Assembly: GCF_947492405.1 (NCBI RefSeq) | Contig: NZ_CANLMP010000008.1 | Location: 225,435-289,434, forward strand | Source: an uncultured Aquimarina sp. | GTDB taxonomy: Bacteria > Bacteroidota > Bacteroidia > Flavobacteriales > Flavobacteriaceae | Length of the DNA stretch: 64,000 bases | Direction of reading: 5' to 3' | Shown here: piece after piece, positions 33,383 through 64,000 of the stretch | How positions within the stretch are numbered: position 1 is the first letter of the stretch | Layout of the letters: each line of letters begins with the position of its first letter | The notes under the pieces: model-generated | What the model was told of the DNA's origin: nothing | The model's input: only the letters and a program-made list of their open reading frames with translations | The model's database searches: none | Program-made: the position numbers and the translations under genes

Positions 33383-33973
33383 ATGATATTCGAGGTACTA
33401 CAGATTATTACAGAAGAGGTTAACAATTTCTTCAATATAGAGATCGAAGAAAAACCAGTTTCATTGGATAACATCGCCTTTATAGAATCAGACACTAACG
33501 AGAATTCAAACACCAGTAATAATGTAGTACTATCATTATTACATACTGAGGAGGAGGCCACTTTAAAAAACATATTAAACCATCAAATAGAAGGAACTAA
33601 GGTTGTCTATAAAAATAATAAGGTGCATTTGAACCTATATGTAATGTTTTCCGCTAACAGAAGTGATTATACAGAATCACTAAAAAGTTTGTCAAAAATC
33701 ATTGAATTTTTCCAGTCAAAAAGAATTTTTACGCAAAGTAATACCAGTTTTGATAGAGAAGTAGATGGAATGGACAAGATTAAAGATTTCAGATTCACTG
33801 TAGAGCTTTTTAGTCCATCTTTTGAAGAGATGAATTTTATCTGGGGTACACTTGGCGGCAAACAATATCCCTCAGTGATATATAAAGCTAGCGTTCTCGA
33901 GATAGAAAGGGATGTTACACAATCAGAAGGAAGTTTAATTACTGAAATAAATGGAACTCTAAATCATAAATAA
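33383..33973 (+). CDS. eCIS cap protein (DUF4255, Afp16/Pvc16-like)
   Basis: LSLLHTEEE..LKN, LNLYVMFSAN, WGTLGGKQYPSVIYK; first gene of the locus. Confidence 0.85.
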   Translation: MIFEVLQIITEEVNNFFNIEIEEKPVSLDNIAFIESDTNENSNTSNNVVLSLLHTEEEATLKNILNHQIEGTKVVYKNNKVHLNLYVMFSANRSDYTESLKSLSKIIEFFQSKRIFTQSNTSFDREVDGMDKIKDFRFTVELFSPSFEEMNFIWGTLGGKQYPSVIYKASVLEIERDVTQSEGSLITEINGTLNHK

Positions 33974-33974
33974 A

Positions 33975-34985
33975 ATGGCATTTAGAACACTATATAAAAC
34001 CTTGTTTGAGATAGAGTTGCTGCACTCTTATTTTCTGGATGACGGATTATCCCCTTTTGTATCTATGAATGATGATGATAAAAAAGAGCAACTAAAAAAG
34101 TACAATTTTTTGGACTACATCAATATAATTCCTTCGTATGCAACTCAGGGAATTTTAAAAAATCATAAACTGGTTTTGAGAAAAGGGCTGAAAGGTTTCA
34201 GGATATTGGGTAGTGTGGTTGAAGAAAATGATAAATTTAAATTGCATAGGTTTTTAGAAAATGATCTAAAACTTACCTTTTTAGTCTATATAAAAGATTA
34301 CTTATTTGATAATTATACTGAGCTCACAAAAACAGATAATAGACTTTACTATTTCTCTAATATCAAACCAGCCACAGAAACAGATCCTTACTCCTATATT
34401 CCACTTAGTTCCTCAAGTGACTTAATTACCGATGATTTTTTGTTAACAGAAGAAAGCACTAGACAGTTATGGTTTGATTTGGAACAGGACAATATAAGGG
34501 CAGAAATAACGAAACGATTAGATCTGGTCGCAGAGCTCAAAAACGATGATCTAATTACAGACGAAGGAAAACAGATTTTAGATCAATCTATTCAAAAAGA
34601 ACATGGCAGAGGCCTATTAGGAATTATTGAGCTACGAATGATTGGTGACAATACTATGGATGTTATAGAGATTGATAGTACTGATCCTAATGATATCAAA
34701 AGTTTTTTATTAAACCCAACACCAGCATATAAACTTCATTTCGAAAACAGAAAAACCATTTGGAAGTACATCAAAAAATCTGATGAAAACGAATTAGAAA
34801 CTTCTTCGGTAAAACCTTTAACCAGGAATGGTTTTATAGAAATTGATCCAGATACTGATTTTTCGGGTCCATTGCCCACTGATATAGATAAATACATTTT
34901 TCCGAACCCTACGGCAAATATCATAAAACAGATAACTGACGAAAACACAAATATAACAACAACATATTCTGAAATTTTTATTTAA
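33975..34985 (+). CDS. Conserved eCIS protein, cap-adaptor candidate
   Basis: Sits between DUF4255 and sheath; LFEIELLHSYF and F.NRKTIWKY motifs. Confidence 0.55.
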   Translation: MAFRTLYKTLFEIELLHSYFLDDGLSPFVSMNDDDKKEQLKKYNFLDYINIIPSYATQGILKNHKLVLRKGLKGFRILGSVVEENDKFKLHRFLENDLKLTFLVYIKDYLFDNYTELTKTDNRLYYFSNIKPATETDPYSYIPLSSSSDLITDDFLLTEESTRQLWFDLEQDNIRAEITKRLDLVAELKNDDLITDEGKQILDQSIQKEHGRGLLGIIELRMIGDNTMDVIEIDSTDPNDIKSFLLNPTPAYKLHFENRKTIWKYIKKSDENELETSSVKPLTRNGFIEIDPDTDFSGPLPTDIDKYIFPNPTANIIKQITDENTNITTTYSEIFI

Positions 34986-35000
34986 AAAACAATTAAAATT

Positions 35001-62390: not shown

Positions 62391-62534
62391 CTCAAGATTT
62401 TTTTTATAAGTAAAGAAAGAGGTTAATCTAGGTTACTTATAGCAGTATAGGAAAATACCCCTAAAAAGATTAGTTTTTTACCCCATTGAAAACCAGTTAA
62501 ATAAGAGTAAATTTAGTTTCTAAATCGCAACGGG

Positions 62535-63353
62535 ATGAAAAAAACAGCATATCAGAAAGAATTGGTTATTAAAGCGACTCAAAAAAGAAAGGGAACTGAT
62601 AATAACAAAAAAGATGTAATGAAAATTCAATCCTGGTTAACACTCTTTTCTATTAGGAATCCAAACAGTGGCACAGCGACTGCAATTGATGGAGATTTTG
62701 GCCCTGCTACAGAAAGGTCAGTAAAGAATTTTCAGAGTTTTAATAACCTTACAAAAACAGGTATTGTTGATCAAGAATTATTCAATACACTCTCTTTTGG
62801 GTTGAAAGAAGCTTTTGAAAAACCTTTAGTAAGTAACAATTTAAGAGATTTGATGGTGGAAGTGTCAGAGAATCATTTAATGCAACACCCTTTCGAACTA
62901 GAGATAAAAGGGCAATCCAATAGCGGACCTTGGGTACGAAGTTATATGGACGGTAATGATGGGGCTCCATGGTTTTGGTGTATGGGATTTGCACAAGCAA
63001 TACTTGATCAAGCTACAAGCGCATTAGGTAAAAATTTCAAAACATTAATGCCACTTACCTATAGTTGTGATACAGTAGGTAATACAGGGTTAGAAAAAGG
63101 ATTATTATCCAGGTTTAGTAAAATAAGAAGAGATCCATCTATCATAAAACAAGGTGATATATTTTTAATTCAAAAATCACGTTTAGATTGGACACATACA
63201 GGCGTGATAACGGCAATAGAAGGCGATGTTATCGAAACTATAGAAGGAAATACCAATCACCAAGGCTCTAGAAATGGAGTCGCGGTTATGAAAAGAACCA
63301 GAAGCTTTAGACGATCTAAAATAGATGTATTTTCTATTGAACCTTTAGTATAA
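62535..63353 (+). CDS. Peptidoglycan-binding domain plus CHAP amidase/endopeptidase
   Basis: IDGDFGPATERSVKNFQ (PG_binding_1); WFWCMGFA, HTGVI, TIEGNTN (CHAP Cys/His/Glu). Confidence 0.88.
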   Translation: MKKTAYQKELVIKATQKRKGTDNNKKDVMKIQSWLTLFSIRNPNSGTATAIDGDFGPATERSVKNFQSFNNLTKTGIVDQELFNTLSFGLKEAFEKPLVSNNLRDLMVEVSENHLMQHPFELEIKGQSNSGPWVRSYMDGNDGAPWFWCMGFAQAILDQATSALGKNFKTLMPLTYSCDTVGNTGLEKGLLSRFSKIRRDPSIIKQGDIFLIQKSRLDWTHTGVITAIEGDVIETIEGNTNHQGSRNGVAVMKRTRSFRRSKIDVFSIEPLV

Positions 63354-63358
63354 AAAAG

Positions 63359-64000
63359 ATGAAAAATATAGTAGCTCAGAATACAATTCATTTCGATAGT
63401 AAATTGTCATTCTTAAGAGAGGTGATAGAATATCGTTTAAAAGATAATTATACCAGTGAAATACCAGTTTTTCCTAAGTTTGATGATATTGTATCAGACG
63501 ATTCTTTGTTTTCAGTATTTGTTAGAAAAAAAGAATTATCCTTAGAAGAAGTGATTACGCTGTTATTGGCTATGGTTCCTCATATTTCGCCTAATTTCTT
63601 TACCACTATTATATCTGATTTTTTGCCTAATGGAGGAGAATTACCCGAATTTGGGGGAATCAAAGGTAAAAACCATCGTGGAATCATACCAACAGGAGAA
63701 ACTGTACAATTCATTATTGGAGGAAACGATATTCAGAAAAGAATTGAATTGACAGAAATGTTCTATGAAGATCATCTTTTTAGGAAAGAAGGAGTATTGT
63801 ATTTAGATATGGTACCGGCAGGAGAACCTAGAATGAGTGGGCGTTTAGCGATAGATGAAGAGTATATAGAGTTATTTACTACCGGTAAAATGCTAAAACC
63901 TACTATGAGTAAGGATTTCCCCGCAGAGCGAATAGAAACAGAATTAGACTGGGATGATCTGGTACTTCAGAGTAAAACCTTACAGCAGATAAAAGAGATT
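63359..64000 (+). CDS. AAA+ ATPase (Afp15-like), N-terminal part, 3'-truncated by window edge
   Basis: Translated by hand from ATG 63359: LPEFGG.KG.NHRG.IPTGET..FI, FPAERIETELDWDDLVL; open to the window end. Confidence 0.85.
   Translation, partial: MKNIVAQNTIHFDSKLSFLREVIEYRLKDNYTSEIPVFPKFDDIVSDDSLFSVFVRKKELSLEEVITLLLAMVPHISPNFFTTIISDFLPNGGELPEFGGIKGKNHRGIIPTGETVQFIIGGNDIQKRIELTEMFYEDHLFRKEGVLYLDMVPAGEPRMSGRLAIDEEYIELFTTGKMLKPTMSKDFPAERIETELDWDDLVLQSKTLQQIKEI

Follow-up and report, generated by a model that had tools for sequence, protein, structure and literature searches.

Introduction

[quoted passage not shown] By experiment, its proteins Cgo1 and Cgo2 sit in the lumen of the tube (PMC8894135). 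Loading of AlgoCIS cargo needs the NTD, with DUF4157 being dispensable, and the fibre of the particle is the 1444-aa protein Alg19 (bioRxiv 10.64898/2026.05.27.728243). Among eCIS toxins, endonucleases and peptidoglycan hydrolases have been predicted, and the immunity genes found adjacent to some of them were taken as a sign of antibacterial action (PMC8213781, PMC11297309). The natural target and the payload logic of AlgoCIS-type systems are of interest; AlgoCIS is also being engineered for protein delivery.

We have analyzed a stretch of 64,000 nt (the window) from the 6.37-Mb genome of an uncultured marine Aquimarina, which also carries a second eCIS locus on contig 10, and compared the locus in the window with a set of 13 syntenic Aquimarina loci. 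Together with these relatives it forms a natural series of cargo variants, in which leader and body are constant and the tails differ.

Structural genes of the locus

Profile searches of the locus identified a complete eCIS on the + strand from position 33383 on, with Pfam matches for every component (sheath, tube, VgrG/PAAR spike, gp25 and J baseplate, tape measure, terminator cap and AAA+ ATPase). The full structural gene set claimed in the initial annotation was recovered, with all elements at their coordinates and on the + strand. Upstream of the locus lie two-component system genes and a MORN protein gene, and downstream of it DUF2891, Nramp and LamB/YcsF genes; neither phage head or replication genes nor a T6SS membrane complex were found in the locus, for which the immediate flanks were inspected.

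The gene order starts with the cap or tail terminator (Pvc16_N, 33383-33973; PF14065, E 6e-37), followed by a cap adaptor resembling Algo2 of AlgoCIS (33975-34985; PDB 7adz_1A, E 1e-42, no Pfam match) and a single sheath with the extra AlgoCIS-type domain (35001-36965; Pfam sheath domains), which aligns to PDB 7adz_2A as one stretch over residues 3-653 (E 2e-184). Two gp19-type tube genes (37119-37565 and 37565-38008; PF06841, E 3e-34 and 2e-44) are followed by a third tube-family protein, CIS_tube (38180-38905; PF19266, E 4e-53), which we infer to be a putative tube initiator. Of the one sheath and two tubes annotated earlier, the single sheath thus stands, but the tube-family genes are three. 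Next come a VgrG-like spike (38908-40653; PF04717/PF05954), PAAR (40838-41128; PF05488), gp25 (41131-41550; PF04965), and two baseplate/cage proteins, one Alg11-like (41569-44811; PDB 7aeb_G, E 2e-226) and one Alg12-like (44822-47635; PDB 7aeb_A, Algo12, E 1e-209, full length). The Alg19-like tail fibre of 1279 aa has PKD/Ig-like domains (47651-51490); its match to 9wt0_a, a 1443-aa PKD protein (PDB, E 6e-150), spans residues 5-1101 and leaves the C-terminal tip unaligned. The tape measure protein (51495-53171; PF19268 CIS_TMP, E 1e-101) precedes the cargo array.

An AAA+ ATPase of the Alg15/Pvc15 type, 447 aa in full, begins at 63359, continues beyond position 64000 (PF00004, E 2e-27; 794-2137 in L006) and has orthologues with 76-95% identity in all syntenic loci. 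The extent of 33383-64000 given earlier is therefore correct in its coordinates except for the end, as this gene closes the locus about 700 bases past the window. The locus is an AlgoCIS-type eCIS of Aquimarina, and the release of extracellular particles is predicted from its genes.

Cargo candidates with a common leader

Three proteins of 606, 1348 and 435 aa (53669-55489, 56252-60298 and 61083-62390, hereafter cargo 1, 2 and 3) have a common N-terminal leader, with the consensus F-I-Q-P-K-L-x-x-G-x-P-x-x-K-Y-E-V-E-A in their alignment. The presence of three leader-sharing proteins with distinct C-termini, as annotated initially, was borne out, and scanning the complete genome in all six frames confined the leader motif to these three open reading frames. 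It is near-invariant among 30 cargo proteins from 13 species, and of 401 Bacteroidota genomes sampled, 53 have it. By analogy with Cgo1 and Cgo2 of AlgoCIS, we infer that the three proteins are cargo. The disordered leader, FIQPKL...KYEVEAD, would steer them into the tube lumen via the ATPase, and the eCIS_core (DUF4157) module would not be needed for loading, which would explain that cargo 3 has the leader alone.

The Cgo1-like cargo 1 has its leader at 53723-53782, an eCIS_core at 54266-54496 (PF13699, E 2e-31), an OmpA-like domain at 54626-54907 (PF00691, E 6e-8) and a zincin-like tail with the motif HEMGH at 54968-55486, as well as acidic 9-aa repeats and a Pro/Lys linker between the OmpA-like domain and the tail. 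The OmpA-like half of the earlier OmpA-like plus zincin assignment is firm, scoring 33.4 bits over residues 320-413 where the cutoff is 27.2. Its N-x-x-L-S-x-x-R-A-x-x-V box is intact, but the position of the canonical, Asp-bearing GHTD box reads GFAS, a point against the bacterial reading given below; we take these two boxes to be the Arg and Asp motifs with which OmpA-like domains contact peptidoglycan. The zincin half is weak: the second HExxH region matched Reprolysin_5 at E 0.18 and shared atlas features with M43, reprolysin and M10 (metzincin-like features, 0.94); the tail is probably a metzincin. Full-length orthologues occur in 4 species.

The Cgo2-like cargo 2 has its leader at 56336-56395 and an eCIS_core at 56855-57088 (PF13699, E 1.5e-32), followed by a helical body of about 750 aa, a Pro/Lys linker, and a tail at 59537-60295. 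The model of this tail (pLDDT 86) agrees with a beta-beta-alpha-metal fold with conserved His and Asn; the best Foldseek matches were Sda1, EXOG, EndoG and NucA (probability 0.6-0.99), together with a CRP-type wHTH. The tail itself scored 14 bits with Endonuclea_NS_2 (E 0.056) against a cutoff of 27, while 5 of 21 tail homologues matched this family and tails in the orthologous slot scored 27.3 and 29.5 bits. Within the tail family H64 is nearly invariant, and G72, N78 and N87 are invariant. Homologues and fold hence uphold the earlier call of a His-Me finger nuclease, here joined to a winged helix, with nuclease activity predicted. The next gene (60295-60951) encodes a 218-aa cytoplasmic HEAT/DUF1186-like protein (atlas match) and overlaps the cargo 2 gene by 4 bases at ATGA, confirming the coupling described earlier (gap -4). 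This type of protein is always encoded directly 3' of the cargo 2 type of tail, in Flavobacterium, in Aquimarina and on a metagenome contig, and may be the immunity protein that matches the nuclease tail.

Cargo 3 has its leader at 61173-61232, within a region predicted in the structure model to be disordered (residues 1-97). The Pfam search gave no PF13699 match and thus no eCIS_core, so the protein is cargo-like by its leader and stands outside the DUF4157 family. Its tail (about 61665-62372) was modeled with a pLDDT of about 80, against 60 for the whole protein. In VIA-align the best 7 structural matches all had the GH19 fold, with Z 13.2-11.4 for GH19 endolysins and the T6SS effector TseP and 10.3-9.6 for GH19 chitinases, and the next fold reached only Z of about 6. 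PHROG endolysin profiles matched at E 9e-7 and 7e-4, and the GH19-like claim of the initial annotation is thereby upheld, though Pfam Glyco_hydro_19 was unmatched at E up to 5. E277 and E286, 9 positions apart, are invariant in 8 homologues; the model supports a GH19-like fold with a glutamate pair predicted to be catalytic.

To the earlier inventory must be added two small membrane proteins and a leaderless endolysin-like protein. The first, of 162 aa (53184-53672), has at least two hydrophobic segments and orthologues in about half of the syntenic loci, and matched no Pfam or PHROG family. The second, of 223 aa (55518-56189), is N-terminally anchored by one transmembrane segment (residues 10-36) and has a weak TPR-like region. 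Its orthologues (57-79% identity) are found in 12 of 13 syntenic Aquimarina loci, with none listed in L013, and since it is kept whatever the cargo tail, it is probably no tail-specific immunity protein. The third (62535-63353) combines PG_binding_1 and CHAP (Pfam; PHROG endolysin, E 3e-10), has orthologues with 80-95% identity in all 13 syntenic loci, and is probably a particle-release lysin.

Release of eCIS particles is by lysis of the producer (bioRxiv 10.1101/2025.10.08.681156), both eCIS loci of this genome end in a leaderless peptidoglycan hydrolase (CHAP here, Amidase_2 on contig 10), and a possible contribution of eCIS toxins to lysis has been raised (Geller 2021, PMC8213781). One could accordingly imagine that the GH19-like and OmpA-zincin proteins, like the CHAP enzyme, only free the particles and are not injected. 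We consider this improbable, as the two proteins bear the cargo leader that the CHAP enzyme lacks, have neither a signal peptide nor an identified holin partner, and the GH19-like gene occurs in only 3 of 13 other syntenic loci as against all for CHAP.

Tail exchange among syntenic loci

In polymorphic toxins of the T6SS, CDI and Rhs types, within the framework of Zhang and Aravind, the trafficking head is conserved and carries C-terminal tails that are hypervariable, and the cognate immunity gene lies immediately downstream. A polymorphic-toxin role, suggested in the initial annotation, is directly supported by comparing cargo C-termini between relatives: leader, eCIS_core and the body of about 1000 aa persist across the 13 syntenic Aquimarina loci, the tails switch type, and each tail type comes with its own small downstream open reading frame, tail and partner co-varying. 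For cargo 2, 11 of the 13 loci keep 72-91% identity as far as roughly residue 1014-1083, with the remaining two at about 50%, and beyond this point identity is lost in 9 of 13. The corresponding break in cargo 1 is at about residue 280-316.

The identities of tail and partner move together (50%/40%, 85%/57% and 68%/30%, and 43%/34% on metagenome contig L030), and similar partners were seen only where the tails are alike; in L029 a tail with 35% identity goes with an unrelated partner. In Flavobacterium, a second cargo whose tail is of another type has an SMI1_KNR4-like gene downstream. As judged from sequence, the comparison of the 13 syntenic loci shows the cargo genes to behave as polymorphic toxins, with the tail and its cognate downstream gene exchanged as a cassette.

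Such interspecies swapping of tail-plus-immunity cassettes is typical of competition systems. It argues against a role inside or on the producer population, for instance in regulated cell death or development as in Streptomyces, where cytoplasmic CIS with DUF4157-linked effectors exist (e.g. PMC11126660). The structural proteins, fibre and cage included, also fit the released AlgoCIS far above other solved systems, and we give such a role hardly any credence.

Target of the particles

A bacterial target is our best reading of domains and literature, and a moderately probable one. In slot 1, an OmpA-like module is present here and in 4 orthologues, and 4 alternative tails, as well as Flavobacterium, have PG_binding_1; in other species signal-anchored small open reading frames adjoin some slot-1 tails on the downstream side. 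The GH19 tail of cargo 3 ranks structurally nearer to endolysins and the antibacterial effector TseP than to chitinases. These findings strengthen the bacterial target proposed initially, which is still a matter of interpretation. The initial statement that the AlgoCIS target is unclear is partly outdated, as imaging has shown AlgoCIS particles that bind to Echinicola pacifica and fire on it (bioRxiv 10.1101/2025.10.08.681156).

The same payload could be directed at algae, protists, fungi or invertebrates, with the GH19 tail acting as a chitinase, the DNase killing eukaryotic cells, and the immunity protein guarding producer DNA before loading. Indeed, the need for protection before loading means that an immunity gene beside the DNase says nothing of the final target. 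The first characterized eCISs (Afp, PVC and MAC) hit eukaryotes, MACs have the nuclease effector Pne1 (bioRxiv 10.64898/2026.05.27.728243), and the cargo 3 model does match GH19 chitinases. Purified AlgoCIS killed no tested bacterial strain (PMC8894135), and retargeted particles were likewise non-toxic (bioRxiv 10.64898/2026.05.27.728243). Moreover, no tail-specific immunity gene, and no periplasmic one, adjoins cargo 1 or cargo 3, which is unusual where antibacterial effectors degrade the wall and sister cells are at risk. We nevertheless find a eukaryotic target rather unlikely: slot-1 cargo carries two unrelated peptidoglycan-binding families with no obvious eukaryotic substrate, endolysins and TseP outrank chitinases for the GH19 tail, which also has the PHROG endolysin matches, and the bacterium E. 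pacifica is the cell on which AlgoCIS was seen to fire.

With bacteria as prey, lysis of the producer, probably by the conserved leaderless CHAP enzyme, would free particles that bind other bacteria through the fibre and then fire. The payload would consist of a peptidoglycan-binding protease-like protein, a wall-acting GH19 muramidase-like enzyme and a non-specific DNase, the last neutralized in the producer by the 218-aa HEAT-repeat partner. The proposal as a whole, an AlgoCIS-type eCIS with leader-loaded polymorphic cargo and bacterial prey, seems to us reasonably likely, its loading, release and toxicity steps being drawn from sequence and analogy.

A wider and more tentative idea, which we hold possible but somewhat doubtful, is that marine Flavobacteriaceae use AlgoCIS-lineage particles against bacteria in the manner of bacteriocins, as weapons that combine periplasm-acting, peptidoglycan-directed cargo with cytoplasm-acting DNases and are re-armed by exchange of tail and immunity cassettes. 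The box of about 20 residues, FIQPKL...YEVEAD, would without DUF4157 be a natural minimal loading signal, and the two systems of this genome, with different cargo heads, would be mutually orthogonal. DUF4157 is lost in two natural cargo types, the 435-aa family and one Aquimarina protein. Recurrent slot-1 peptidoglycan-binding modules and toxin-partner pairs make both the antibacterial eCIS idea and the minimal loading signal readily testable.

Comparison with known systems

Nearly all elements of this locus have been published: DUF4157 cargo with immunity (Geller 2021), Cgo1 and Cgo2 (Xu 2022), the N-terminal loading sequence (2026 preprint) and the firing of AlgoCIS on a bacterium (2025 preprint). 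The locus illustrates a known kind well and is no new system, and since antibacterial DUF4157-headed eCIS toxins with immunity genes are already in Geller et al. 2021 (PMC8213781), its novelty is below what the initial annotation implied.

In common with AlgoCIS (PMC8894135) the locus has the cap adaptor, the single long sheath, the Alg11/Alg12 cage, the Alg19-like fibre, the tape measure and the AAA+ ATPase. The cargo genes, compared by layout, also correspond: near the ATPase a short cargo with NTD, DUF4157 and HExxH tail (Cgo1) and a long one with NTD, DUF4157 and a body of about 1000 aa (Cgo2). Unlike AlgoCIS, which has two cargo genes, the Aquimarina locus has three; cargo 1 differs by the insertion of an OmpA-like module, cargo 2 has a nuclease and winged-helix tail with a partner gene, and cargo 3 has a leader and a GH19-like tail without DUF4157, and the array holds the CHAP lysin and two small membrane proteins.

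The cargo 3 tail matches the fold of TseP (PDB 8XCL; PMC11893102; Aeromonas dhakensis T6SS) and of GH19 endolysins (9MS7, 9EOI, 8P8E) with Z 11.4-13.2 at a sequence identity of only about 14-16%. E277 and E286 have the spacing of the catalytic dyad of the TseP lysozyme, E654/E663 (PMC11893102), and the motif Y-R-G-R-G...T-H-K-D-x-Y-I-K is common to both. In contrast to these proteins, cargo 3 has an additional helical domain (about 100 aa, residues ~88-190) ahead of the tail, and unlike TseP it has no adjoining TsiP-like immunity gene.

The toxins of Geller et al. 2021 (PMC8213781) and Danov et al. 2024 (PMC11297309) have, as here, DUF4157 at the N-terminus and a toxin domain at the C-terminus, joined by a long linker. 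Those studies were based on heterologous toxicity tests, whereas ours is a genus-level comparison of one syntenic locus and of the co-variation of tail and partner. Within the window we saw neither orphan tail cassettes nor orphan immunity cassettes. The SUKH/SMI1_KNR4-type partners in related loci are as in polymorphic toxin systems; unlike in other such systems, delivery here would be by a released phage-tail-like particle, as predicted, with loading of the lumen via a disordered leader.

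An injection machine homologous to AlgoCIS

Twenty-one co-directional genes, overlapping or separated by short gaps, run on the + strand from 33383 to the end of the window, which corresponds to positions 225435-289434 of contig 8 in a genome of 6.37 Mb. With Pfam, a Pvc16_N cap protein, one sheath, two gp19-type tube proteins, a third tube-family protein (CIS_tube), a VgrG-like spike, PAAR, gp25, a Baseplate_J protein and a CIS tape measure protein were recognised. In a PDB sequence search, proteins without a Pfam family matched chains in the AlgoCIS structure from Algoriphagus machipongonensis: the 336-aa protein the cap adaptor of 7adz (E 1e-42), the 1080-aa protein Alg11 (E 2e-226), the 937-aa protein Alg12 (E 1e-209), and the 1279-aa protein a 1443-aa PKD protein in 9wt0 (E 6e-150), with which the Alg19 fibre agrees in size and type (bioRxiv 10.64898/2026.05.27.728243). 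The 654-aa sheath (35001-36965) aligned with the AlgoCIS sheath 7adz_2A in one stretch, across residues 3-653 (E 2e-184). Downstream DNA was fetched, and the final ORF, a 447-aa AAA+ ATPase, stops about 700 bases beyond the window and is followed by unrelated metabolic genes. The names of homologues assign the organism to Aquimarina. Pfam families, AlgoCIS matches and the ATPase together bear out the full structural gene set proposed in the initial annotation. Its single sheath was found as well, and its two tubes are present as the gp19-type pair, yet CIS_tube is a third member of the tube family. The architecture of machine and cargo is, in our judgement, almost certainly as read.

Within the single sheath alignment lies an Ala/Thr/Ser-rich insertion (~35760-36310), which may be the counterpart of the extra domain IV mentioned for the AlgoCIS sheath (bioRxiv 10.64898/2026.05.27.728243). 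A histidine kinase of the LytS type (PF06580) and a LytTR response regulator are encoded at 30048-31860 (+), ~1.5 kb before the start of the eCIS operon, and are preceded by Kelch-repeat, DUF6268 and DUF4907 genes; the pair is a possible regulator of the eCIS locus or of lysis.

The cargo array and its leader

Between the tape measure and ATPase genes follow, in order, a 162-aa membrane protein, a 606-aa protein (cargo 1; 53669-55489, +), a 223-aa anchored protein, a 1348-aa protein (cargo 2; 56252-60298, +), a 218-aa protein whose gene overlaps that of cargo 2 by 4 bases, a 435-aa protein (cargo 3; 61083-62390, +) and a PG_binding_1+CHAP protein (62535-63353, +). No intergenic terminator was found in the array by the terminator scan, and the sites of a sigma-70 promoter scan, which is not informative for Bacteroidota promoters, were no more numerous than in shuffled sequence, so that the array is compatible with being part of one operon.

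Cargo 1, 2 and 3 have a leader box, F-I-Q-P-K-L-x-x-G-x-P-x-x-K-Y-E-V-E-A, near the N-terminus. When the complete genome was scanned in six frames, the box was found in exactly these three ORFs, in agreement with the three leader-sharing proteins first noted. In cargo 1 and 2 the leader is followed by acidic low-complexity repeats and then by eCIS_core (DUF4157; E 2e-31 and 1.5e-32). No eCIS_core was detected in cargo 3 with Pfam, and its residues 1-97 are predicted to be disordered. The box is near-invariant in 30 cargo proteins from 13 syntenic Aquimarina loci. A leader confined to one locus was rejected, since a search of 401 sampled Bacteroidota genomes with a leader profile found the box in 53, mostly in 1-3 long ORFs apiece.

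The cargo 1 repeats (residues ~95-175, ~53950-54190) comprise 7-8 tandem 9-residue units of the type M-E-E-E-E-x-V-Q-A and may be the source of the length range (578-637 aa) among full-length orthologues. In one Bacteroidota family with small genomes (2.2-3 Mb) the box occurs in 27 of 87 genomes, with 9 copies in one of them. Some matches fall in short ORFs (168-324 aa), which may be leader-only proteins.

Domains and folds of the cargo tails

The three tails are distinct. In cargo 1, an OmpA-like domain (33.4 bits against a Pfam cutoff of 27.2) is joined by a Pro/Lys linker to a tail that contains the motif HEMGH. Thus the OmpA-like part of the original OmpA-plus-zincin reading stands. The tail itself is weakly recognised (Reprolysin_5, E 0.18; language-model neighbours in the M43, reprolysin and M10 families), and for this reason the zincin, though likely, is the least secure of the domain calls.

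The cargo 2 tail (residues ~1096-1348) gave nothing significant in a PDB sequence search, with the tail or with its family profile. It has 22 representative relatives, in which the domain lies C-terminally in proteins of 233-2577 aa; among 21 scanned, 9 contain eCIS_core and 5 Endonuclea_NS_2. A near-invariant His and invariant Gly and Asn residues are embedded in the pattern H-L-L...H-G-P...W-N...L-N-x-x-M. By Foldseek, the AlphaFold model (pLDDT 86) resembles Sda1, EXOG, EndoG/CPS-6 and NucA, and its last ~70 residues resemble CRP-type winged helices. We read the tail as a putative non-specific DNase of the His-Me type, joined to a DNA-binding winged helix, and the nuclease call made earlier is supported by homologues and fold.

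Cargo 3 has eight homologues, and all named ones are from Aquimarina. A PDB sequence search with the protein and its family profile found nothing significant, the one useful lead being a short motif shared with 8XCL. The model has a pLDDT of 60 overall and ~80 in the domain; with the whole 435-aa model Foldseek matches were weak (E ~1), and the fold became clear in an exhaustive VIA-align search, where GH19-fold proteins took the top seven places: endolysins (Z 13.2, 12.7 and 11.6), TseP (11.4) and chitinases (10.3-9.6), with lytic transglycosylases at ~6. PHROG endolysin profiles also matched (E 9e-7). E277 and E286 are invariant among the homologues and have the same spacing as the lysozyme dyad E654/E663 of TseP (PMC11893102). 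These data support the GH19-like assignment.

Tail exchange and partner genes

A related tape measure protein was found in 70 of the 91 genomes searched within Aquimarina and in 44 of the 301 sampled across the family Flavobacteriaceae. Fifteen loci were fetched, and 13 were syntenic, with the cargo-array layout, CHAP and ATPase genes (both in 13/13) and mostly the same downstream flank; three of these 13 other loci have the GH19-like gene.

At the position of cargo 1, proteins from the 13 loci match as far as residue ~280-316 and diverge thereafter. The OmpA-plus-zincin tail is seen again in four species, while four other loci have PG_binding_1 tails and three have tails of unknown family. 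At the position of cargo 2, identity is 72-91% in 11 loci and ~50% in the other two (L020 and L021) as far as residue ~1014-1083, beyond which similarity is lost in 9/13 loci. Several alternative tails score above the Endonuclea_NS_2 threshold. All tails at this position but one have a different cytoplasmic small ORF downstream. Similarity between these partners is limited to loci with similar tails (tail/partner identities of 50%/40%, 85%/57% and 68%/30%).

Outside the genus, Flavobacterium loci encode the same cargo with a length of 1400 aa (63% identity, tail included) and a homologue of the 218-aa gene directly downstream of it; a second Flavobacterium cargo has a different tail and then an SMI1_KNR4-like gene. 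On a metagenome contig a 43% identical tail precedes a 34% identical partner, and for a more distant tail (35%) the partner is unrelated. Such co-variation, within Aquimarina and in the Flavobacterium and metagenome pairs, is characteristic of polymorphic toxin-immunity cassettes, and judging from sequence comparison the cargo genes with their downstream partners very probably are such cassettes. The 218-aa protein, a HEAT/DUF1186-type helical repeat without signal peptide, has the form that an immunity protein against a nuclease acting in the cytoplasm would be expected to have. Both the polymorphic-toxin role and the coupled immunity-like gene suggested at the outset are thus supported.

The 223-aa membrane protein was rejected as cargo 1 immunity, because it is kept in 12/13 syntenic loci whatever the tail type. 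Each of the three unknown-family tails is followed by a signal-anchored ORF of 166-168 aa (L014:15593-16099, L021:3575-4075, L023:15601-16107); these ORFs are candidates for immunity proteins of the periplasm, in which case the cargo would act there. L021 also encodes a 464-aa protein (4798-6192, +) with the leader and weak OmpA-like and reprolysin-like HExxH matches, lacking eCIS_core; it resembles a cargo 1 that has lost its DUF4157 module and is a second natural example of a DUF4157-less cargo. In L020, an 854-aa patatin-like phospholipase gene (1804-4368, -), with no leader detected, separates the cargo array from the CHAP gene, and an extra 1387-aa cargo is followed by a 173-aa ORF that looks SMI1/KNR4-like from its N-terminal sequence.

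A second eCIS in the same genome

Contig 10 carries a second complete eCIS locus (L008 and L007, e.g. L007:4016-17855), with its own tape measure protein, AAA+ ATPase and three eCIS_core proteins (416, 1191 and 761 aa). It closes with an Amidase_2 enzyme in the position that the CHAP gene has in the window. Its cargo proteins lack the FIQPKL leader, have eCIS_core almost at the start and carry an L-E-K-E-A-D box past the domain. Two systems with different cargo heads therefore coexist, and may load independently of each other.

Proposed mechanism and target

By homology with AlgoCIS, particles would assemble in the cytoplasm, where the AAA+ ATPase may recognise the disordered leader and bring cargo into the tube. 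Loading of this kind has been shown for Cgo1 and Cgo2, which need the NTD for it but neither DUF4157 nor the CTD (PMC8894135; bioRxiv 10.64898/2026.05.27.728243). Release would occur by lysis of the producer, for which the conserved leaderless CHAP protein is the obvious candidate enzyme, and target choice would reside in the Alg19-like fibre.

Bacterial targets, as first suggested, are the somewhat favoured reading. In their favour are two unrelated peptidoglycan-binding domain families (OmpA-like and PG_binding_1, in the cargo 1 position), a muramidase-like GH19 domain and a DNase in the payload, the GH19 domain being closest to endolysins and an antibacterial T6SS effector, TseP. AlgoCIS has been imaged on Echinicola pacifica, both bound and fired (bioRxiv 10.1101/2025.10.08.681156). 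Our confidence is held at this level since AlgoCIS particles killed none of the tested bacteria (PMC8894135), no tail-specific immunity genes for cargo 1 and 3 are present in the locus, and GH19 also takes in chitinases. The immunity gene, initially counted towards bacterial targets or a polymorphic-toxin role, does not identify the target, as it is needed beside a DNase whatever the final target.

Comparison with known systems

DUF4157 has been described as a core domain of eCIS proteins that lies on the N-terminal side of toxin domains, from which linkers of more than 1000 aa can separate it, and antibacterial eCIS toxins have been reported, including predicted endonucleases and peptidoglycan hydrolases, some with immunity genes (Geller et al. 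2021, PMC8213781). Cgo1 and Cgo2 were defined by Xu et al. (2022, PMC8894135), and the AlgoCIS loading sequence more recently (bioRxiv 10.64898/2026.05.27.728243); by analogy, the leader may be its counterpart here. Overall, the initial observation is confirmed and its interpretation supported with the caveats given. To the known systems the present analysis adds a clean series, within one genus, of cassettes swapped at constant break points, peptidoglycan-binding modules recurring in the cargo 1 position, and natural examples of leader-only cargo.
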